This document shows, one piece after another, positions 901 through 52,210 of a DNA stretch of 53,578 nucleotides (positions are counted from its first letter, which is position 1; every line of letters starts with the position of its first letter). This DNA comes from a virus (lineage: Duplodnaviria; Heunggongvirae; Uroviricota; Caudoviricetes). A program made the translations under genes and the position numbers. Where the stretch lies: the IMG/VR virus record IMGVR_UViG_2671181188_000017; one strand, 5' to 3'. The notes under the pieces are model-generated. The model saw only the letters and a list, made by a program, of their open reading frames with translations. It did no database searches and was not told the DNA's origin.

Positions 901-1026
901 ATGTCTGCACCTGCATTGCCTGATGTCAGAACAGTATTTTGATTAATTGCCAGGGTTACAATGGCACAAATGCGGCACAGGAGGAAACGTGGTGTATTTA
1001 AATATGGGGTAACTACTTGATTTAAA

Positions 1027-1045
1027 TGGTGCGATAATAGGAACC
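1027..1045. repeat. Degenerate copy of the tRNA-Thr 3' end (candidate distal att repeat of the P4-like island)
   Basis: tggtgcgataatagga matches the att core tggtgccgataatagga with one missing base; lies in AT-rich intergenic DNA between the LysR gene and island cargo. A second weaker look-alike is near 1445-1475. Confidence 0.3.
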
Positions 1046-1575
1046 AATAATCGCCACCAACACAATGATTTTAATACATAAATTAAAATAGAAGATTTAA
1101 ACTACACACACCCCTATACACATTGGTGAAGGCGTTCGCTTTCCGCGCATTCTCAAGGCAGAAAAAACTTTTTTTGGGGGAAAACTGTTCATACTACTCA
1201 TTGTGTTTTTTTTCATTAATATTCAAAAAGATATGAAATTAACGATTGATAAGAAGTGAACACTTTACTGTTCACCTTGACTGATTAATAAGTGCATAAA
1301 AACCTAATTTTTGAGCACGGAAGGTATTTGTTCCTTACCCCATTTTTTCTCTTTAGTCCAGTACAACAAAAAATGCGCCCAACAGAAAACTGTTTTGAAT
1401 TTAAATGCAATCGCTTTGTAGTGATTGTAACGTAAGTTGATTTGATGGGTGCGATTTTGTTTAGCGATAATGGTATGTTGTAAAAATCATTTCGTTGCAA
1501 TAAAATTGCATCGCTACATTTTATAGACAATATCAATTAAATTTTAATACTCATTATTAATTTTGAGGCTAACAA

Positions 1576-2532
1576 GTGACTAGTTATTCAAACTTTTCCA
1601 ATCAAATAAAAGAAACCATCAATAATAAATTCGATCATGAAATTCATGATTGGGACATTATAAAAAACTCAATCACAACTTTAATAAATAAAAATATCCA
1701 TGGTGCAGGTAGAAATATCGTTGATTTTATAGATTTAGGTAACTGGGATTTTATTTCAAACTTTTCCTTTGATGACTCTACAAGAAGACTTGAATTAGAG
1801 TGGCACCCCAATGATAAATTCCATATATATATTGAGTCCGTTGTGTTTGTCGAGTTTAATGACACTATATATGCTTTCTTAAAGGGATACTATCACAATC
1901 AGTTATCTCTAAATAGAATATATAATACAAAATGCTCTTCATGTTCATTTGAAAACTCAGGTTCTTATATGGTAGACGTTTATAGAACGGTTAAAAGAGT
2001 AAATGAGACAATCCAGACCCCAAATATAAATTGCTATACTACATGTATTTTAACAAGGCCCGCAAATGGTCATGTTACATCTACAGGCTTCTCACGAAAC
2101 CTCATGGATGCGATAAATATTTCATTAGCAGAGCACAAAATAGCCTCTTTACATAATGAAGTCATGAGTATTGAGGAATATGATCGTGATTCTTTACAAG
2201 AGAAAGGAAATACTGCCAGGAGATATTTAGAATATATTCTCATGCTTGTTAATATTCGTATAATGCATTTAAACAACGTTCAATACCAAGAGCAAATGCT
2301 AGGTAGTTTAGTTTCTGTTATTGAGGCTCTGGACTATGAACCATTAATGAAAAATGATGTTGAAATTACAAAGGACATCCTTAATGCTTGCAGCCACCAC
2401 GGGGGGGTTAGAATTGAAAAGAAAGATGTAATTTTTTCTTTGGAAGTTATTGAAAACTTAATTAAAGCCATAAAGAAAACCGACATAAATAAATTACAAC
2501 TCGATGGGATGTTTAAATCAATTCAAAAATAA
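1576..2532 (+). CDS. Hypothetical protein, AT-rich cargo gene at the alpha-distal end of the P4-like island
   Basis: 318-aa ORF, strongly N/K/I-rich and AT-rich; convergent with the primase gene; no motif I can recognise. Confidence 0.5.
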   Translation: MTSYSNFSNQIKETINNKFDHEIHDWDIIKNSITTLINKNIHGAGRNIVDFIDLGNWDFISNFSFDDSTRRLELEWHPNDKFHIYIESVVFVEFNDTIYAFLKGYYHNQLSLNRIYNTKCSSCSFENSGSYMVDVYRTVKRVNETIQTPNINCYTTCILTRPANGHVTSTGFSRNLMDAINISLAEHKIASLHNEVMSIEEYDRDSLQEKGNTARRYLEYILMLVNIRIMHLNNVQYQEQMLGSLVSVIEALDYEPLMKNDVEITKDILNACSHHGGVRIEKKDVIFSLEVIENLIKAIKKTDINKLQLDGMFKSIQK

Positions 2533-2636
2533 ACATCATCTAACAATGAATTAGATGCATTTTCCGCTGACGCCTTAGCATATAACTTTTAAATTTTATC
2601 GATATATATTTTGAGATAATTTCCTGTAGCGGATTT

Positions 2637-2657
2637 AAGACCGGCACAGCCGGTCTT
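2637..2657. terminator. Hairpin (9-bp stem aagaccggc/gccggtctt, 3-nt loop) between convergent genes
   Basis: Perfect inverted repeat read directly in the sequence between the 1576..2532 ORF and the primase stop at 2665. Confidence 0.45.
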
Positions 2658-2664
2658 AGGTCAG

Positions 2665-4998
2665 TTATTTCGCTGCAAACTCATCGCATTTTGGCAACCA
2701 GTCAGCATTGCTTTCCTCTCTTAGGGCCAGATTAGTCTGCATTCCTTGATTGGTCCGTCGTTTCTCATACTGCAGCCCATATTCCTTGAGCATTAACGGT
2801 AGCCCCTTGCCAAACATGGTCAGACTGAGCGTATTTTTATAGCCGTTAGCCTCCATGTAGACCAGATAGGCATGGTAGAGGTAAGTTCGAGGCTGACGTG
2901 GAACAATATTAGCGTTCCCCATAAACATGCCCGTGGTGTCAGGTAGGACCTCAAGGTAGCCGCAAAAATCAAAAGCTGAATCAGCATCACGTTTGATGGT
3001 GAGCGCTTCATCGGAGTTCTGCTGTGACTGAAGCAATGTCCTGGCACTCATTGGGTCGCTGAAACGCTGCATAAGCTGGCGAACAATCACCGCTAGCTCA
3101 CTGGCAATTTTCTCTTTGAGCTGGGTATCGCGTTCCTCCGGGGCTATCTGGTCGGGGAAATGCAGGATCACCCTTCGGCGTGAAACTCCACCACTACGAT
3201 CAGTGAAGCGCATCGGATTATTGTTCACAGCCAGGATGACCGCCGGGATGTGGGTTGAATAGGCGTTCTGATATTTGGGATCAACGGATACCGCATCGCC
3301 GCCAGTGATGGCTTTTAGTCCGGCCCCGTCACCGCTCCACTTTTCCTGGTCGGGAAGTCGAATCAGTGAAAAACCTATTAACGCAGCTCGTTCTCTTGGC
3401 GACTCAAGCATTTCAATGGTTGCCGAGGTCGCGTTATCTTCACCCGCCAGCATGGTTGCTATTTCAGCAAGAATACTCTTTCCACTTCCGCCAGGGCCAG
3501 TGACCTCCAGAAACAGCTGCCAGTCATAACGGTTAGCCAGCACCATAAACAATGCAGCCAGAATAATGTCCCGTTTTTCAGGATTAAAACCTGCGGCACG
3601 ATCCAGCCAGCGCCAGAATGCCGGGGCATGGGTTTCCAGTGACTCACCGTCAACGGGCTGCGTGTAATCCACCTCGCACAGCGTACGTAACCAGTGCTTC
3701 TTATCGTGCGGGCTGAACAATCCTGTCCGGGTATCGAGCACACCGTTGCGAAATCCGATAAGTTGCCGCGCCGGATTCTGCTGTTGCGGAACGATCAGTT
3801 TGAGGGTTTCCACGAGAGACGCAATTTTCGCGGATGAAAAAGGTGCGTCGAGGCGCTGAAACAGCGCAGCGACATCACGGGCAAAATCGGCGTAATAGAT
3901 AACTTTCCAGGCCCCCGCCTCATAGCGTGAAAGGAGCTGCCCGTTCGGGTCTACTGCCAGTGAATTTTTATAGTGATCCACTACCCTCTGCGCTTTTTCG
4001 CTGACGCTCAGCGCGGTAAATTCAGCTTCGCTCATTGTGTCGAAGGGGCTGGCAACAGCTGGTTTTATTACTTCATGAATTGCATGCCGGGTGGCTTCTT
4101 CGCCGTTTTGCGTGAATGCATCGTTCCAGTCACCAAACACAGGCGGGAGCGCCATTGTGCAATTGCAGGCCCCGGTAACAGCTGCGCCCCTTGTTTGCCC
4201 CGCACCGTTGAGATCGCGGTCAGCAGCAATAATTATCTGGTGCGTTGGGTACTCACTGCAGGCAATGCTCGCCAGGGAAAGGAAATTGACGGACGAAAAG
4301 GCCACCATGACAGCATCGCCAGTCAGATAGTTGATAGTAAGTGCGGTGGCATATCCTTCCGCTATCCAGAGCCGTTTGGCTGCTTTGGCAGTACCTTCAA
4401 CCAGGTAAAAGGCATTCTTAACCTGACCGCCTTTAAGGAAGCATTTGCCCCCATTAGCGTTGATTAACTGCAGATTTACCAGCTCTCCATCTGCATACAA
4501 TGGAACGACAAGATCTCCCGCGCGAAATGCCACACCACCGACTTTATGCATAGCGGTTAATTCCCGGCAAGGCAGTGCAGGAAACCCTTTACTCGTCAGA
4601 TAGGCATTGCCAGTGGTCTGGCGGGACTTATCAAACAAACGGGCAGCCAGCACTGCTGCAGCTTTTCTCCCGTCCTCTTTTTCAGGAGAACCAGATTCAA
4701 GCATTCCCTGAGATACTGGCAGCAGGTTTCCGATAATGCCGTTTATTCTGTCTGCCGCTTCACTAATGCCTACATCCAGTACTTTACTTACAAGCGCCAG
4801 GCCATCACCTGCCCCGCACTGGTTACAGAACCACGTTCCCCGCCCTTCCTGGTCATCAAATCGAAAGCGGTCTTTCCCGGCACAGACCGGGCAGGGCTGG
4901 TGCCGATTTTTCAGTACATTTACGCCCAGCGCAGGTAAAATTCTTGACCAGTGACCCCGAGCTGCTTTCTCAGCCTGGCTAACTTTCATTCCTGACAT
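2665..4998 (-). CDS. P4 alpha-like primase/helicase (replication protein)
   Basis: 796-aa ORF (track 2665..5055; likely start at MSGMKVSQ); N-terminal zinc-binding CPVCAGKDRFRFDD..WFCNQCG typical of phage/plasmid primases, and C-terminal P-loop GPGGSGKS. Confidence 0.85.
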   Translation of the reverse strand: MSGMKVSQAEKAARGHWSRILPALGVNVLKNRHQPCPVCAGKDRFRFDDQEGRGTWFCNQCGAGDGLALVSKVLDVGISEAADRINGIIGNLLPVSQGMLESGSPEKEDGRKAAAVLAARLFDKSRQTTGNAYLTSKGFPALPCRELTAMHKVGGVAFRAGDLVVPLYADGELVNLQLINANGGKCFLKGGQVKNAFYLVEGTAKAAKRLWIAEGYATALTINYLTGDAVMVAFSSVNFLSLASIACSEYPTHQIIIAADRDLNGAGQTRGAAVTGACNCTMALPPVFGDWNDAFTQNGEEATRHAIHEVIKPAVASPFDTMSEAEFTALSVSEKAQRVVDHYKNSLAVDPNGQLLSRYEAGAWKVIYYADFARDVAALFQRLDAPFSSAKIASLVETLKLIVPQQQNPARQLIGFRNGVLDTRTGLFSPHDKKHWLRTLCEVDYTQPVDGESLETHAPAFWRWLDRAAGFNPEKRDIILAALFMVLANRYDWQLFLEVTGPGGSGKSILAEIATMLAGEDNATSATIEMLESPRERAALIGFSLIRLPDQEKWSGDGAGLKAITGGDAVSVDPKYQNAYSTHIPAVILAVNNNPMRFTDRSGGVSRRRVILHFPDQIAPEERDTQLKEKIASELAVIVRQLMQRFSDPMSARTLLQSQQNSDEALTIKRDADSAFDFCGYLEVLPDTTGMFMGNANIVPRQPRTYLYHAYLVYMEANGYKNTLSLTMFGKGLPLMLKEYGLQYEKRRTNQGMQTNLALREESNADWLPKCDEFAAK

Positions 4999-5011
4999 TG
5001 TGCGGCCCTCC

Positions 5012-5335
5012 TTAGTGCAGCGCTGGTTTGTTGAGGTGACGGGAACAAAGTTCATCCATGACCGTCATTCCGAGCAGTGAGAGAACCGGACAGGCTTTAA
5101 GCGGCCCCGACTCCATCAGATCCGAAAGCAACGCGCAGGCAATTTCCAGCCCTCTTTGCTGCCCATGCTGGCGCAGATAGAACCCTTCCAGCTCGCGGGC
5201 TATGGCATCTTCAAGTTCAGCGAGCGTCAGGCCGGAATAACGTTCCTGATGATTGCTTAGAGCCAGCCAGGCACAGGCAACGGCACGGCGATACAGAGCG
5301 GCACGAAGTGCCAGAAGAGATTCACAGCATATCAT
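5012..5335 (-). CDS. Hypothetical P4-like early-region protein
   Basis: 107-aa ORF in the operon upstream of the primase; start/stop overlap with neighbours. Confidence 0.4.
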
Positions 5336-5556
5336 CAGGCCACCTCCGCATTCATCAGGTCGTCATGGCAGCGTTGCACCACTCCATCCAGTTGCTCTGT
5401 CATCAGATAAATGAGGGAAACCAGTTGTTCGCATTGGGCACCTGCTGGCTTTTCATAACAGTCCTGCAGGGCTGCCATGCCAGTTACATACTCACCCACA
5501 TTGCGTAAATGTTTCAGCCTTACAACATCGTCGTAGGAAATCTCAAACTGGTTCAT
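5335..5556 (-). CDS. Hypothetical P4-like early-region protein
   Basis: 73-aa ORF, 4-nt overlap with the upstream ORF and stop/start overlap with the downstream ORF. Confidence 0.4.
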
Positions 5557-6106
5557 AGCGTCACCTCCCCGGCAGGCAGCCGTGCAGAAAGGGAGAGTAC
5601 ATAATCTCGGACTAGCAAACGGCGCGCGGAACGCTCATCGCAGGAGACAGTGCGAAGCATACAGATGCGGGGGTGAGTGTCAGCACGGCGGATTGCGGCA
5701 AACACAAAGACATATTGCGGGTGTGACGGGGTGAGGATTGTAGCCATGATGGCAGCCTCCAATAAGTAGCGGTTATTGCTACCACCGGAAACGCCAATTT
5801 CACTGGTGGCAGCCCGAACGGGGTTGGCGTAACCGGCCTTATTGGAAACCGGCCAGCCCGAAGGCTGCCCCGCCCGGACTACCATTATCTCGATAGAACC
5901 ATGGTGTAAGCATAAACACCACAGCCCTGAAAATGGTTGTGCCTGAGCTACGACGTAAAAAAAGACGCAAGGGGCGTCAATTGTCGCCAATAAGTTATAC
6001 GGAACGCCAATTCCGGCTGCCGATTTTGCGACAGCGGAAAAACTATACCTGGAAATGACGACAGTAAGCAAGCCAGAATAAAGGTATTTAATGTATGCAG
6101 GTATCA

Positions 6107-6367
6107 TCATGCATCACATCCCCGCCCACGGGCGCTGATGCGGTCCGCCATCCATGCGCTGACCTCAGACTGTGCCCAGGCGACATTTTTACCGCCAAGC
6201 GGGATCTGCTTCGGAAACGCATCGCGGCTGATCAGGTCGTAAACGGTCGAACGGGACAACCCGCATAAGTGCATCACCTCAGGCAGGCGTAAAAATCGCT
6301 CATGATGGTTCGATACAGGAAATAATGGCGCAGCAGGAGCTGGCGCAGACACAGAAATATTACGCAT
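6107..6367 (-). CDS. AlpA-family phage regulatory protein (Vis/excisionase-like HTH)
   Basis: ..[49 protein letters not shown].. matches the AlpA-type HTH pattern. Confidence 0.75.
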
Positions 6368-6919
6368 TTATCTACCCTCTTTAATTTCCACAACAGTCCG
6401 GATGAATTTATCCGGGTTCAGGTAGTTCCTTATTATGTGTATATAAACCACCTGCGCACGCATTTTTTATTTAGCGTCACATATTGATTTTATGGAATTT
6501 AAAGCCCGATTAAACCATATAAAATGACATAATAAATACCATGCCTGCGGACTATAAATACAGGAGCATTAATAGGAACTACCATTCACCCAGGGTTTAC
6601 TATCCTATGGGTCATTGCACCTGATAGTGCTAACCCCACCGCCAATACAGCAAGGCTGTACAACTTCTACACGAGGCCTTGCATTGCAGGCCCCAATTTC
6701 CGGGCATATTTTTGAATCGCATCCAACTTATAAACATTGGGCCTGCATAAAAACCTTGATATTAAATAACATCACCTTAAATCGTAAAATATATCCGAAT
6801 GAATCCATAAAGAACCGGACAGATCTAGTTTTATAAAAATCAGTATGAAATGCAACACCATGGCCAGAGGCGAAAATGTTATTCCCCGGCAAAAACATGC
6901 AGTCTATTTATGTGCCTGT

Positions 6920-7134
6920 TGAATACTCCTGAATAAGGGTGAATAGTGGTGAGGAGCAAAAAACAAATAGCTACGAGGAATAAAAAAACCACCCATTATG
7001 AAAAAATACCATAAATAATTTTATTCCCATGTGAACAGTTATGAACAGTCGATGAATACTGCCATGCCAACCCTTCACCTTATAACCTTCTGTATTACCT
7101 ATTTTTTTTACCTAAGTGAATAGTAGTGAATAGT
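6920..7134. promoter_or_regulatory. Three clusters of phased TGAA(T/C)A direct repeats in the divergent control region of the P4-like island
   Basis: tgaatact/tgaataag/tgaatagt at about 6920-6947, tgaacagt/tgaacagt/tgaatact at 7032-7060, gtgaatagt x2 at 7116-7134; roughly 10-bp spacing within clusters; upstream of the 7301 operon. Confidence 0.4.
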
Positions 7135-7300
7135 TAAGGTAAGTCTGAAACAGCCTTAGTTAAACGAGGCCTTTTCTGGCTAGCCAAAAGAGGTCCGGGG
7201 CGGTTCAGTCTTTGTCTTGTCGCTCGCACAATGGCGTTCAATGGCAGCTTTGTATGCATCACAGCACAATTGACACCACGACAAACCACTAGGTGCTGAC

Positions 7301-8053
7301 ATGACAATCCCAGAACAGAACAATAACCCGATCGTTGAAATTTCTATCCCTGTTTCGACGCAACAGGCGCTTGAGAAAGTGAATGCCACCAAATCTGCAT
7401 GGCTTGAAGCACGTCGTCAGCAAAAAGCGGCAGCGGATAATATTGCGACAATCCGCCAGCGCCGCGCTGAAATGGAAGCCACGACGAACGCCCTGAATGA
7501 GGAGTGGCGCACGCTATTTCGTGAAAGTCAGGGCGTAGTCTCAAAGGAAATGAAAAAACTGCGCACGGAAATTGCGCTGGGACGAGAAACGCTTGAGGAT
7601 TTTGATGAGCTGCTGGCGGCTCAGGAAAGCGAAAATGCACTTTTGCCGCAGGAGGCTGCGGAATTAGCCGGAAAGTATATCCACGCGCACGACACCCTTG
7701 TGGGTATTCGCGCAAAACAAATCTGGGAAGATTTTATGCAGTCGCATGGAAAAGCACTAATCCAGACACTAAGCCTGCTCAAATCAACAATGGGCAGGGA
7801 AGCCAGCGCAGTTGTCGGTGTGGTGCATTCAGTTAATGACCCGGACACACTGCTGAAAGATTTTATTCATAAACATATCACCAGACCGGCTCTGACTAAC
7901 GATGCGATGCCCGAACAGGACCCCGTGTTTAAACTGGCGGGAGTTGCCCCGGATTATGCGGCCCGTCTGGATTTCAGTAATAAACTCTCTCCAGCAGCTA
8001 TGCATAAAATGAAGGTTCGTCAGGAACGTGCTGAGAAGGAGAAAGCAGTATGA
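7301..8053 (+). CDS. P4 late-operon protein (Sid-like candidate by position and size)
   Basis: 250-aa coiled-coil-rich protein, first gene of the operon preceding the Psu-like and Ogr-like genes; assignment is positional. Confidence 0.35.
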   Translation: MTIPEQNNNPIVEISIPVSTQQALEKVNATKSAWLEARRQQKAAADNIATIRQRRAEMEATTNALNEEWRTLFRESQGVVSKEMKKLRTEIALGRETLEDFDELLAAQESENALLPQEAAELAGKYIHAHDTLVGIRAKQIWEDFMQSHGKALIQTLSLLKSTMGREASAVVGVVHSVNDPDTLLKDFIHKHITRPALTNDAMPEQDPVFKLAGVAPDYAARLDFSNKLSPAAMHKMKVRQERAEKEKAV

Positions 8054-8601
8054 TGGCCCGAGTCACTCCAGACCAAGCGCTTATCAGTTTTAGAAATGCC
8101 CGTATTCTGTGGGCTGGACATAGTGAGAGCCGAAAAGCCGTTGAACAACAGATAGAATCACTCCTCACTGCCATGGAAAAACCAGCAGATTATGCTCGAC
8201 AGCTCGAATTACAGCGGGAACATCTGGATGTGCTGAAATGGCAAATTAACTGTGCTGCGCGCGAATGCATTTACTCGCAGCATCAACTGATGGAGGCCTG
8301 CACAGAAGACGCTCTCAGCAATTTTATGCAGGCGAATGGAGCAGCCCTGACATCTGCACTGGCTCCGTTCCTGAAGGGGCGCGGAGGGGTTGACGTTGCG
8401 TCCCGTATATTACGCAATGCTCTGGTTCGCCAGCTGGCAATAACACCGCCTGAAATTGCCGGGGATTATCGTATGATTCTGGATGAATCCGGTGTGATGC
8501 CTGACCCCATGATGGTTCGTGATTGCCAGAGCTCTTACACCCCTGCACAACAACTGCGCTTTCAGCAACGTCTGGATTACATTAACGGCATGCAGGAGTA
8601 A
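8050..8601 (+). CDS. Psu-like (polarity suppression / capsid decoration) protein candidate
   Basis: 183 aa, size and position as in P4; segments such as LDVLKWQINCAA and ANGAALTSALAP resemble Psu as I recall it; 4-nt overlap with the upstream gene. Confidence 0.45.
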   Translation: MMARVTPDQALISFRNARILWAGHSESRKAVEQQIESLLTAMEKPADYARQLELQREHLDVLKWQINCAARECIYSQHQLMEACTEDALSNFMQANGAALTSALAPFLKGRGGVDVASRILRNALVRQLAITPPEIAGDYRMILDESGVMPDPMMVRDCQSSYTPAQQLRFQQRLDYINGMQE

Positions 8602-8606
8602 TATTA

Positions 8607-8879
8607 ATGGCACTTAAATGTCCCGAATGCGGTACGACGGCACACGCCAGAACCTCCGCCTATGAAGCACCATCGGTTAAACGCTCATGGTATCAGTGCC
8701 AGAATCTTGAATGTTCCTACACATTTACCGCACTGGAAAGTGTGGATACGATAATCATGAAGCCCCGGCGCAATGAACAGGAATCAGAGAAAGCACAAAT
8801 GCCGGAAAAACAACAGCAAACTCTCAATCGCTATGGCTCCGCGTCAAAGCTGTCAAGCCGTCAGCAAATTCCTGTCTGA
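8607..8879 (+). CDS. Ogr/Delta-family zinc-finger late transcription activator
   Basis: CPECG..HARTS..YQCQNLECSYTF: the C-x2-C..C-x4-C Ogr/Delta zinc-finger pattern. Confidence 0.8.
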   Translation: MALKCPECGTTAHARTSAYEAPSVKRSWYQCQNLECSYTFTALESVDTIIMKPRRNEQESEKAQMPEKQQQTLNRYGSASKLSSRQQIPV

Positions 8880-8897
8880 TTAGCAAAAAAAGCCCAC

Positions 8898-8925
8898 GTA
8901 ATCCCGGTCCAGTACTGGGATTTTT
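8898..8925 (+). terminator. Putative rho-independent terminator after the Ogr-like gene
   Basis: GC-rich palindrome (cccggtccagtactggga) followed by a T-run. Confidence 0.4.
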
Positions 8926-9232
8926 TACGCCTTTTCCCTGGCTGGCCTGAGAGCGCATGAGTGCATGTCTATAGCGCATGAAAACGCATGATTCTCATGC
9001 ACCATTTTTGACGCGAAAGCCCTTGTGTGGTGGCTTCTGAGACGATTTGCGGAATGCATGAAAACCAGTCTGTTAAGCGAAGCGAGCAGGCGTGGGGGGC
9101 TGCGCGCGCTAAGGGGTTAGATTATAAAATATCAAACGCCGGTGAGATCCATTATTGTGGAACCACCCGAAGGAAGTGTAGAGGCGAAAGTACCCAAAAT
9201 AATTTTGCAAATTATTTAGAAATGAACTGAGC

Positions 9233-9262
9233 GCTCGAAACGAAATATAATTTCGAGCACCC
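9233..9262. terminator. Hairpin (gctcgaaa...tttcgagc) downstream of the hotspot operon
   Basis: 8-bp inverted repeat between the convergent Ogr-like operon and the minus-strand hotspot operon. Confidence 0.4.
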
Positions 9263-9288
9263 CAATTAGCAGTTATATTTTTAATGTA

Positions 9289-9855
9289 TTAAACAGGATA
9301 AAAACCAGAGCTTCCATTCTTATTTAAGTTATGGATTTTATTTGCATCATTAATTTTTATTTGGAACGTCGGACCTTTATTCTCAAGAATTACAATCTGG
9401 AAATTATAGTCCCTTTTGATTAATGCGTGATAAAATGAATCACTGAGACTGACGCTATTAACATCCGATAGAGAACCCCCTCTATCTTTATCAAAGTGCG
9501 TCACTAATGGACTATCAAGCACAACAAATCCAATGAATGGATTCCCTTTTCTTGATAAAAATTCCGCAAAGCAAATGGTAAATATAGCATGCATTACTGC
9601 ACGGGTACCTTTACCAAACATTCCTCGGCGTTTCCCATTGATATTAAAGTCATATGTATCTTCGTCAAATCGCACTTTGTTATCTTTAGAATTTTCAAAA
9701 TTTATATCATTCAAAAAGTCTTGCATCGCTATTTCTATATCATACAAATCAGCTACTGTTAAGGAGTCAAAGTCCTCGGCGGAGTATTTAAGTTCGTCAA
9801 CATCATCTTCTTTATCTTGTAATGAAGATAGAATGCTATGTTTTGTGTGATCCAT
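9289..9855 (-). CDS. Hotspot ORF F: ABC/SMC-type ATPase C-terminal lobe (Walker B-like GFVVLDSP)
   Basis: 188 aa; hydrophobic stretch ending in D (FIGFVVLDSP); start ATG overlaps the ORF E stop as TAATG; AT-rich. Confidence 0.55.
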   Translation of the reverse strand: MDHTKHSILSSLQDKEDDVDELKYSAEDFDSLTVADLYDIEIAMQDFLNDINFENSKDNKVRFDEDTYDFNINGKRRGMFGKGTRAVMHAIFTICFAEFLSRKGNPFIGFVVLDSPLVTHFDKDRGGSLSDVNSVSLSDSFYHALIKRDYNFQIVILENKGPTFQIKINDANKIHNLNKNGSSGFYPV

Positions 9856-10445
9856 TAAAAGATTGTCTTTATATTCATAAAGTGATTCAAGAGATGAATG
9901 TATTGTTTTATATTTTTATCTTCTAACGTCTTAAAATCACTTTTTTCTGATTGATAAATTTCATTAACATCATTTTTTCTTAACATAATTAATTCATGTT
10001 CGCGAACATTAGATCCGATTGATTCAATTAATCCTTTCAGCTGGCTTTTGATTTTCAATTTTTCTGCATTACACGACAAAAAACAATCATCATATGATAT
10101 TTCATTTTCTTTTTTTTGCGGTGTATTACAGAACTCACAATAAATATCTGCAAAATTATTTAAATAGAAATTCGCCTGTGATACAACATCTATTCTTTGT
10201 AGATCTATAAAGTATTGGTCTTTAAGAAGACTAAATCTTTCAATGAGTAATGATAAGTATTTTTCCCTGTCACTGATTGAATATAATTCATCACTTAACT
10301 CTTTTAATAATTGCTTCTTATCATCAAGTGCATCAACAATACCTTTCAATATATCTTTCGATGATTCAATATCTTGCTCTACTTTCTCAAGTTCTCTTGA
10401 AACAATGACTTGATCATATTCAGGATAAATTAATTGCGCTTTCAA
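9855..10445 (-). CDS. Hotspot ORF E: coiled-coil segment with CxxC (zinc-hook-like) motif; probably continuous with ORF D
   Basis: 196 aa, heptad-rich, contains CEFC and CFLSC; has no ATG (track start is TTG); in the same frame as ORF D, separated only by one TAA and 10 sense codons. Confidence 0.4.
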   Translation of the reverse strand: MKAQLIYPEYDQVIVSRELEKVEQDIESSKDILKGIVDALDDKKQLLKELSDELYSISDREKYLSLLIERFSLLKDQYFIDLQRIDVVSQANFYLNNFADIYCEFCNTPQKKENEISYDDCFLSCNAEKLKIKSQLKGLIESIGSNVREHELIMLRKNDVNEIYQSEKSDFKTLEDKNIKQYIHLLNHFMNIKTIF

Positions 10446-10475
10446 TTCCTCATAAATATTTGCAATTTGATTTTT

Positions 10476-50730: not shown

Positions 50731-51080
50731 TGGAGCCATACAGCCTCACACTCGATGAGGCCTGTCATTTTCTCAAGATATCCAGACCGACTGCCATTAA
50801 CTGGATACGCACAGGGCGTCTTCAGGCAACACGCAAAGATCCCACTAAGAATAAATCTCCTTACCTCACAACACGACAAGCCTGCATTGCGGCTCTTCAG
50901 TCTCCGCTGCATACTGTCCAGGTGAGCGCGGGTGATGGCATAACAGAGGAAAGAAAATGTCACTCTTCCGCAGAGGTGAAATATGGTACGCCAGTTTCAC
51001 ATTGCCGAACGGTAAAAGATTTAAACAGTCTCTTGGAACAAAGGACAAAAGGCAGGCGACAGAACTCCATGACAAGCTAA
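50730..51080 (+). CDS. Excisionase-like HTH protein (Xis candidate)
   Basis: Likely start [37 protein letters not shown] (HTH), directly upstream of and overlapping int; track ORF 50646..51080. Confidence 0.5.
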
Positions 51081-52120
51081 AGGCTGAAGCATGGCGGGTC
51101 AGCAAACTTGGTGAAATACCTGATATAACGTTCGAGGAAGCGTGTGTCAGGTGGCTTGAAGAGAAAGCACATAAAAAATCGCTGGACGATGACAAAAGCC
51201 GGATCGGATTCTGGCTTCAACATTTCGCAGGAATGCAACTAAGAGACATTACTGAATCAAAAATTTATTCAGCAATGCAGAAAATGACGAACCGGCGTCA
51301 TGAGGAAAACTGGAAACTCAGGGCAGAAGCATGCAGAAAAAAAGGGAAACCTGTTCCAGAATACACGCCAAAACCAGCGTCCGTTGCAACGAAGGCTACG
51401 CATCTTTCATTTATAAAGGCCCTACTAAGAGCCGCAGAGCGTGAATGGAAAATGCTGGATAAGGCACCAATTATTAAAGTGCCTCAACCAAAGAATAAAC
51501 GGATCCGCTGGCTGGAGCCCCATGAAGCACAAAGGCTGATTGATGAATGTCCGGAGCCATTAAAGTCTGTTGTTGAATTTGCACTGGCAACAGGCTTAAG
51601 ACGCTCGAACATCATCAACCTTGAATGGCAACAAATAGATATGCAGCGCCGGGTGGCATGGATAAACCCGGAAGAGAGTAAATCAAACCGCGCAATTGGC
51701 GTTGCGCTGAATGATACTGCATGTCGCGTATTGAAAAAACAAATCGGGAATCATCACCGTTGGGTATTTGTGTACAAGGAAAGCTGTACCAAACCAGACG
51801 GAACGAAAGCGCCAACAGTAAGGAAGATGCGGTATGACGCAAACACAGCCTGGAAAGCGGCGCTGAGACGGGCTGGTATTGATGATTTCAGATTTCACGA
51901 CTTGAGACACACCTGGGCAAGTTGGCTGGTTCAAGCCGGAGTCCCGTTGTCAGTGTTACAGGAAATGGGAGGCTGGGAGTCTATCGAAATGGTTCGTCGA
52001 TATGCTCACCTTGCACCTAATCACCTTACCGAACACGCACGGCAAATAGACTCGATCCTGAACCCATCGGTCCCAAATTTGTCCCAGTCAAAAAATAAGG
52101 AAGGTACTAATGATGTGTAA
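50957..52120 (+). CDS. Prophage tyrosine integrase
   Basis: 387 aa; C-terminal ..[33 protein letters not shown] catalytic region; ends 15 nt from the tRNA. Confidence 0.9.
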
Positions 52121-52134
52121 CTTATTGATTTTAA

Positions 52135-52210
52135 TGGTGCCGATAATAGGAGTCGAACCTACGACCTTCGCATTACGAATGCGCTGCTCTACCAACTGAG
52201 CTATATCGGC
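52135..52210 (-). tRNA. thrW: tRNA-Thr (CGU anticodon), attachment target
   Basis: 76 nt whose reverse complement reads GCCGATATAGCTCAGTTGGTAGAGCAGCGCATTCGTAATGCGAAGGTCGTAGGTTCGACTCCTATTATCGGCACCA. Confidence 0.95.

Follow-up and report, generated by a model that had tools for sequence, protein, structure and literature searches.

The anticodon nucleases PrrC and RloC share the catalytic triad Arg-X3-Glu-X36-52-His, often with a Ser before the His, in which each residue is essential (Davidov and Kaufmann, PMC2610378), the residues being R320/E324/H356 in PrrC and R692/E696/H737 in the RloC of G. kaustophilus (PMC2610378, PMC1484252). Within the HEPN superfamily, Ex3[KR] is a second conserved motif, built on an acidic residue, and the Arg of the Rx4-6H motif is followed by a polar residue. 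Families that keep the His of this motif without its Arg are known, such as c2405 and PaREP1, a different basic residue presumably acting in its stead (Anantharaman et al. 2013, PMC3710099). The active site of RnlA combines an upstream R255/E258 pair with R318 and H323, all of them essential (PMC8266594), and DS-11 is a validated one-protein HEPN defence. Here we analyzed a gene of the virus record IMGVR_UViG_2671181188_000017, a stretch of 53,578 nucleotides referred to in full as the window, which represents the thrW region of E. coli O157:H7 and matches many O157 genomes at 100% identity. The gene (1576..2532, + strand, 318 aa plus stop) is listed in RefSeq as hypothetical protein WP_000205213.1, and its counterpart in the Sakai strain, ECs_0304, is the final gene of what the Sakai annotation terms "prophage Sp2, P4-like phage". 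Based on its predicted fold and its conserved residues, we regard it as moderately probable that ECs_0304 is a stand-alone, ATPase-less HEPN RNase of abortive infection, with a triad of the PrrC/RloC type and carried as single-gene cargo.

Predicted structure of ECs_0304

An earlier reading of the DNA from its letters only, termed the sequence-only reading in the following, had delineated exactly this open reading frame (ORF), as do RefSeq and Sakai, had described its product as low-complexity and devoid of any recognisable motif, and had proposed structure prediction and a remote homology search as checks; both were run. AlphaFold2, using a 33-sequence alignment, yielded a confident two-domain model with a predicted local distance difference test score (pLDDT) of 87.6 and a predicted template modelling score (pTM) of 0.83. 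The N-terminal domain (aa 1–165; 1576..2070, +) comprises two helices followed by about ten β-strands and is presumed to be a sensor or regulatory domain, whereas the C-terminal domain (aa 170–318; 2083..2529, +) is all-helical in the model and adopts the up-down bundle of the HEPN fold. Its fold matches include HEPN toxins of HEPN/MNT pairs, namely 7ae2 (10.7) as well as 8xdj and 5yep (10.5), and further YutE, HI0074, the HEPN domain of sacsin and Csm6. For the N-terminal domain model the best matches were YojF, HemS/ChuX-like and PH-like folds. A PD-(D/E)xK nuclease, suspected there from the stretch NIVDFID...K103, was rejected, as no nuclease fold matched and K103 is not conserved across the family. 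The protein is rich in Ile (11.0%) and Asn (9.7%), yet every 12-residue window has an entropy of at least 2.4 bits, which together with the confident fold speaks against low complexity.

For sequence libraries the absence of a recognisable motif was borne out: the window protein has no match in Pfam, PADLOC, NCBIfam or PHROGs, including the curated HEPN models of the Pfam clan and NCBIfam, which gave one DUF4145 match (E 0.042) among 51 relatives. PDB sequence searches with two profiles returned nothing, the viral structures of BFVD gave no significant match, and neither the accession nor the motif peptides were found in the parts of the DefensePredictor supplements examined. The HEPN fold and the conserved residues described below are, in turn, both recognisable.

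Conserved residues and likeness to known HEPN systems

Residue conservation was assessed on an alignment of 51 relatives reaching down to 17% identity. R215, E219, H274 and G277 are invariant (51/51), N270 and S273 are kept in 48/51, and these two belong to a larger set of near-invariant positions (D50, D58, W76, P162, S173, N181, N212, L222, K223, Y237, G243, L245, N270 and S273). The invariant residues belong to two motifs of the HEPN-fold domain. The first, N212-T-A-R215-R-Y-L-E219-Y-I-L-M223 (2209..2244, +; R215 codon at 2218–2220, E219 codon at 2230–2232), has the family consensus N-T-x-R-R-x-x-E-x-x-L-K and thereby contains both R-x3-E and E-x3-K, so that the Ex3[KR] motif of the superfamily is present with the Glu in 51/51 and the Lys in 46/51 sequences, the clade of the window protein itself carrying M223. 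The second, N270-A-C-S273-H274-H-G-G277 (2383..2406, +; H274 codon at 2395–2397), has the consensus N-x-x-S-H-[DH]-[SG]-G and places N270 four residues before the invariant His (N-x3-H). Taken together, R215-x3-E219 and S273-H274 reproduce the PrrC/RloC triad with residues that are invariant or nearly so.

We compared the family with PrrC/RloC also by profile methods. Scanned singly against Pfam AAA_13, the PrrC/RloC family, three of the 51 relatives match, and two of these matches, located at profile positions 575–706 (E 7.8e-4) and 634–692 (E 0.073) of 713, fall on the C-terminal nuclease part and not on the ATPase. The C-terminus of an RloC-like AAA_13 protein, encoded 7 kb from the Salmonella homologue, reads FNTMRNILEYYF, followed after 40 residues by INRHSHSDG, and the local motifs are near-identical, NTMRNILEY...INRHSHSDG in this protein corresponding to NTxRRxxEY...LNxxSHDSG in the family (in common, NTxRxxxEY and NxxSHxxG). 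Alignment of the family profile with RloC-like C-termini by hhalign brought both motifs into register over 91 columns (E 4.6e-4), while family members received no significant score from a narrow hidden Markov model of RloC-like C-termini. The motifs correspond in a specific manner, and a relation to PrrC/RloC judged from these alignments is suggestive rather than proven.

Beyond the C-terminal triad domain, the likeness to PrrC/RloC extends to a GTG start, which many rloC genes have, and to an occasional linkage to ArdC and type I restriction–modification (RM) genes in both. In contrast, the N-terminal ABC-type ATPase of PrrC/RloC is absent from the window protein, as are the coiled coil and the zinc hook; instead, its 165-aa N-terminal domain is β-rich and YojF/ChuX-like, and at 318 aa it is smaller than PrrC (~400 aa) and RloC (~800 aa). 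Unlike PrrC/RloC, it has no RM locus around it in the window, and the sequence relation lies below curated thresholds. RnlA and LsoA (RNase LS), which act against phage, likewise have N-terminal α/β domains before a C-terminal HEPN domain, and the upstream Arg/Glu pair and downstream His of RnlA parallel R215/E219/H274. AbiJ (with AbiJ-NTDs), AbiTii-c2405 and DS-11 (CBS-HEPN) also unite, in one chain and with no partner, an N-domain presumed to be a sensor with a C-terminal HEPN domain, and the c2405 family resembles that of ECs_0304 in keeping the His while the Arg of Rx4-6H is absent; however, ECs_0304 shows no Pfam, PADLOC or NCBIfam match to these proteins or their N-domains, and its own N-domain fold differs. 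Type II (VII) toxins of HEPN/MNT pairs (SO_3166, PDB 5yep, 7ae2) are minimal HEPN proteins of ~130 aa that have an RX4HXY motif and are encoded next to an MNT antitoxin gene, whereas ECs_0304 has no MNT neighbor, an extra 165-aa domain and a different motif.

Relatives, selection and genomic contexts

A word-indexed search retrieved 36 clusters of relatives with 44–100% identity and lengths of 298–362 aa, all annotated as hypothetical, from Escherichia, Citrobacter, Providencia, Pantoea, Pectobacterium, Proteus, Serratia, Enterobacter, Salmonella, Klebsiella, Buttiauxella and Aeromonas. The remote homology search, performed with a profile against 1.84 billion representative proteins, extended this to 108 clusters at E≤1e-3, 65 of which reach E≤1e-10; most members have about 320 aa, and one representative cluster stems from Paenibacillus. 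The gene is hence not the orphan it had been taken for. Longer relatives (470–610 aa) carry extra domains, for which no Pfam match was found.

ECs_0304 is a real gene under purifying selection, with ratios of non-synonymous to synonymous substitution rates (dN/dS) of 0.06 and 0.115 in comparison with its closest homologues, L002 and L012 (L numbers are our labels for compared loci). A Shine-Dalgarno sequence, GAGG, can be read 7 nt 5' of the GTG start codon (1565..1568, +), and the homologues of 80% and 77% identity (L002, L012) have an ATG at the GTG position, preceded by the identical TTGAGG, which fixes the start of ECs_0304. Among 5426 complete E. coli genomes, 307 contain the ORF region at an identity of at least 99%, namely O157:H7 and its relative O55:H7, and no further occurrence was detected in this set at the megablast level. 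The strong AT-richness noted from the sequence was confirmed, the guanine–cytosine (GC) content being 0.313 for the ORF vs 0.500 for the LysR gene to its left and 0.522 for the primase gene to its right. Homologues have 29–35% GC whatever their host, including hosts of high GC content, which indicates a horizontally moving gene.

The neighborhoods of homologues were compared in 13 genomic contexts. In a second E. coli P4-like satellite a 77% identical allele is again convergent with the primase 3' end, in a Providencia satellite-like element the homologue directly follows ogr/delta at the element edge, and in another E. coli thrW island (L009 10001–16327) a 45% identical homologue lies directly after the integrase at the same tRNA gene. 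The 80% identical homologue resides on a Citrobacter integrative and conjugative element (ICE), between an orphan N6/N4 methyltransferase gene and ArdC; a type I RM system and an AAA_15 gene are located in the vicinity. Further homologues were found on a Salmonella Rep3 plasmid contig (L030 8001–16942) together with ParDE, TacAT and a RelA/SpoT-like gene, inside a Pantoea lambdoid prophage, at an Enterobacter spot beside the gene of a putAbiC protein, adjoining an MmeI-type RM system on a metagenomic contig, and in a Paenibacillus island that also encodes Gabija and a giant NACHT-like protein. The gene moves singly, its carriers comprising satellites, an ICE, a plasmid and a prophage, and it also occurs in defence islands. 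Across the 13 contexts there is no conserved neighboring gene, partner or small ORF and no adjacent cognate antitoxin of the HEPN/MNT or RnlAB type, and distant loci share no flanking DNA. A conserved upstream non-coding RNA, a small antitoxin ORF and a partner gene were therefore rejected, and an Rfam scan of 900–2700 gave no match. Two large upstream proteins considered as a common partner (1522 aa in L012, 1586 aa in L019) are unrelated, one being an AIDA autotransporter and the other NACHT-like.

Several of these loci contain additional genes close to the homologue. On the Salmonella contig L030 an RloC-like AAA_13 gene, whose relatives are named "wobble nucleotide-excising tRNase", lies 7 kb from the homologue, with the RelA/SpoT-like gene, ParDE and TacAT in between, so that two nuclease-motif relatives coexist on one element. 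In L009 a three-gene cluster on the opposite strand, encoding a 387-aa receiver/lipase-like, a 149-aa and a 1091-aa Y4jQ-domain protein, stands beside the homologue and may be an uncharacterised defence system. In Pantoea (L032/L033 6919–8942) a 351-aa gene with no Pfam match lies 27 bp ahead of the homologue in the same orientation, and the two may form a two-gene variant of the system; in L033, DNA methylase and GHKL-type ATPase genes adjoin this pair. A tblastn search of sequenced phages and plasmids returned one weak phage match and one fragmentary plasmid copy. The latter, the only match in PLSDB, is located on a non-mobilisable E. coli plasmid (NZ_CP044147.1 43348–43965; 51% identity in three pieces, no annotated gene) and is probably a pseudogene.

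Position within the P4-like satellite

The 3' end of the tRNA-Thr gene at 52135–52210 (–) is repeated at 13909–13937 and, with a 1-bp deletion, at 1025–1042. Comparison of the three resulting attachment site (att) copies (1025–1042, 13909–13937 and 52131–52159) identifies the degenerate copy of the thrW 3' end at 1025..1042 (AATGGTGC-GATAATAGGA) as the distal att, which the sequence-only reading had assumed next to the ORF. In island-free E. coli genomes the homology of the left flank stops at window position ~1042–1049, directly at thrW, and the Sakai annotation places the end of Sp2 at the matching position. Judged from the att copies and the junction with the chromosome, the P4-like satellite extends over about 1043–13937, with its integrase at 12569–13801 and the ORF inside it, 530 bp from the distal end. 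A second prophage of ~38 kb with its own integrase (50957–52120) lies between the satellite and thrW, the three att copies thus delimiting a tandem array of the two elements. The second element differs or is shorter in other O157 strains, being disrupted by an insertion sequence (IS) in PV15-279 and corresponding to the 10.6-kb Sp1 in Sakai.

The interval between primase and att is known as a minor defence hotspot of P4-like satellites, accounting for 7% of P4 systems (PMC13586616), and 6 of 8 tested P4 hotspot loci of no assigned function defended against phages. In related satellites, whose primases are 80–91% identical and whose core genes have the same order, homology to the window is lost ~15–20 nt inside the primase 3' end. 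The slot between primase and chromosome contains an HNH endonuclease and a fragment of a phosphorothioate-dependent restriction enzyme in L026, is empty in L027 and holds a different 365-aa gene of no assigned function in L028. This agrees with the earlier proposal of a second accessory-gene position beside the distal att. ECs_0304 is an intact accessory (cargo) gene in the variable primase–att slot of satellite Sp2.

The main cargo hotspot (9289–12565, –), with a GC content of 0.309 equally low as the ORF, lies between delta/psu and the integrase, and RefSeq names its products "ABC-three component system". Its AAA-family ATPase is a pseudogene in Sakai (ECs_0293) and is split into several ORFs in the window, by which the main-hotspot system looks decayed, whereas ECs_0304 is intact.

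Evidence for and against a one-gene abortive-infection role

The sequence-only reading had put the gene forward as a candidate single-gene defence or abortive-infection factor. The HEPN fold, the triad, the lack of a conserved partner and the hotspot slot strengthen this candidacy and do not prove it. We infer RNase activity, a tRNA substrate, sensing by the N-domain and an anti-phage phenotype, and in the best-supported reading the β-rich N-domain takes the place of the regulatory ABC ATPase of PrrC/RloC. ECs_0304, a chain with a predicted mass of 36 kDa, would be produced at a low level from a GTG start in AT-rich, probably silenced DNA, and its N-domain would hold the protein latent by analogy with other HEPN proteins. 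Binding of a phage-derived protein or metabolite to the N-domain might then release or dimerise the HEPN domain, which would cut tRNA, or another RNA, independently of metal, stop translation and abort the infection, so that the clonal population and the resident satellite would be protected.

Several observations weigh against this role. No sequence model of known defence or HEPN proteins matched at its curated threshold, and the Arg of the canonical Rx4-6H motif is missing, since the family has L, A, S or T at position 269, in no sequence R or K, and conserves no Arg 4–6 residues upstream of the His, whereas the corresponding Rx6H stretch of RloC (YRAINRHSH) has one. The spacing from Glu to His, 54 residues in the window protein and 50–70 in the family with a mode of 53, is at or just beyond the published 36–52 and mostly longer. 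Neither the best AAA_13 match, with 18.7 bits at a cut-off of 36, nor the alignment by hhalign, with a probability of 33%, reaches significance, so that the link to PrrC/RloC rests mainly on the identity of the motifs. In Proteus, Aeromonas and Serratia, moreover, homologues occur as isolated insertions between housekeeping genes, without defence neighbors; sequenced phages and plasmids rarely carry the gene, and no literature on ECs_0304 was found.

Some of these points, together with the genomic contexts, could also be accounted for by other functions. The protein could be an addiction toxin, a HEPN RNase that stabilises its carrier elements by post-segregational killing, is kept in check by its own N-domain or by a small antitoxin that escaped recognition, and has no dedicated anti-phage role. 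The many kinds of mobile element that carry the gene fit such a toxin, as does the location of the Salmonella homologue on a Rep3 plasmid amid ParDE and TacAT modules, but the 13 contexts lack any conserved neighboring gene, small ORF or non-coding flank as well as an MNT or RnlB-like partner, and addiction serves nothing at the several lone chromosomal copies; we therefore consider it unlikely. The boundary between toxin–antitoxin systems and abortive infection is, moreover, blurred. Slightly less likely still is a non-catalytic HEPN domain that binds RNA, nucleotide or protein, as in MtlR and the substrate-binding domains of nucleotidyltransferases, and acts as a regulator or adaptor for the life cycle of the element. 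The missing Rx4-6H Arg invites this explanation, given that HEPN domains without the motif have been proposed in the literature as non-catalytic binders. Yet Arg, Glu and His each conserved in 51/51 sequences, with a Ser before the His, form the pattern of the triad essential in PrrC/RloC, and a His without the motif Arg occurs in known HEPN families in which another basic residue is thought to take over. The life cycles of the carrier elements are also unrelated, which disfavors an element-specific role.

A weapon of the element against host immunity, competitors or the helper phage, for example by degrading specific host or phage RNAs at entry, appears improbable to us. Satellites are known to interfere with helper phages, and on the ICE the 80% identical homologue is flanked by an orphan N6/N4 methyltransferase gene and ArdC, as is typical of regions devoted to anti-restriction. 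However, two RloC genes are also linked to ArdC, an arrangement read as a trigger of defence (PMC2610378), most other contexts are defence-type or neutral, and lone chromosomal copies enter no cell. A decaying or silent leftover, finally, is strongly disfavored, although a GTG start within AT-rich, foreign-looking and likely silenced DNA, the missing literature and the pseudogenised ATPase of the neighboring main hotspot in Sakai would suit it. The preservation of the gene in full length in the 307 genomes, dN/dS values of 0.06–0.12, a length kept across 36 clusters, the confident fold and the conserved start codon and Shine-Dalgarno sequence all contradict it, and they equally disfavor the degraded remnant that the sequence-only reading had named as grounds for withdrawing its proposal.

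Extending the abortive-infection reading to the whole family, we offer a more specific proposal that must be taken as doubtful. The family may be a minimal, ATPase-less descendant or relative of PrrC/RloC, in which a new β-rich domain would directly sense a cue of the phage or helper phage and switch on a tRNA-cutting HEPN domain that has the R-x3-E and S-H triad without the Rx4-6H Arg, spread as a naked one-gene cassette across satellites, ICEs, plasmids, prophages and chromosomal spots. Specialists would expect a HEPN one-gene abortive-infection candidate in a satellite hotspot; new is an unannotated family that is invisible to defence finders and in which, by motif and model, a PrrC/RloC-like triad appears to be joined to a new regulatory domain in place of an ATPase.

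If an abortive-infection role holds, the P4-like satellite of O157:H7 and O55:H7 contains a one-gene immune module that had escaped recognition, and a translation-disabling nuclease of the PrrC/RloC type would exist in a compact form, without ABC ATPase or linked restriction system. It would then provide a simple system for the latency and triggering of a HEPN anticodon-nuclease domain as well as a new sensor domain whose ligand could be sought. The family could be added to the libraries of defence finders, which currently miss it entirely, and the little-studied primase–att cargo slot of P4-like satellites would gain a concrete example.

Features flanking the gene

The upstream untranslated and promoter region (1410..1575, +) travels with the gene in its closest relatives, as seen from ~170 bp of similarity to L012, L013 and L014. 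It contains sigma-70-like sites at 1442–1471, 1478–1506 and 1524–1551, which are not above chance, the promoter scan yielding 7 sites vs 9.6 expected. Further upstream, a palindrome GTGAACA-N6-TGTTCAC(C) at 1256–1275 holds one P4 replication iteron octamer TGTTCACC, and a 33-bp stretch around it matches DNA upstream of the 77% identical homologue in L012. The palindrome could be a crr-like or operator site, the single octamer copy being statistically not significant; for the same reason a P4 crr-like iteron array beside the ORF was rejected, as only one TGTTCACC octamer is present, within the palindrome. An att-like degenerate repeat, TTGATTTGATGGGTGCGAT, at 1437–1455, located 420 bp inside the distal att, is 84% identical to the att flank at 1017–1035 and may be left from an earlier tandem integration; 1043–1436 would then be the remnant of another element.

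Downstream, the ORF is convergent with the primase gene (2665..5055, –), as the sequence-only reading had described together with a strong hairpin at 2637..2657. This hairpin is real and extends around that core to a GC-rich stem of 14 pairs with a 3-nt loop over 2632..2662, in between the two convergent genes. The calculated RNA folding energy (ΔG) is −26.1 kcal/mol for the + strand (z −5.7) and −20.2 kcal/mol for the − strand (z −4.5); the + strand is terminator-like with the T-rich tail AGTTATTTCG, whereas the − strand is without a U-tract. With a position 100 nt past the ORF stop and 2 nt before the primase stop codon, the hairpin is common to both genes. For the primase the longest ORF encodes 796 aa (2665..5055, –), whereas RefSeq and Sakai annotate 777 aa (2334 nt), and the true start is probably an internal ATG.

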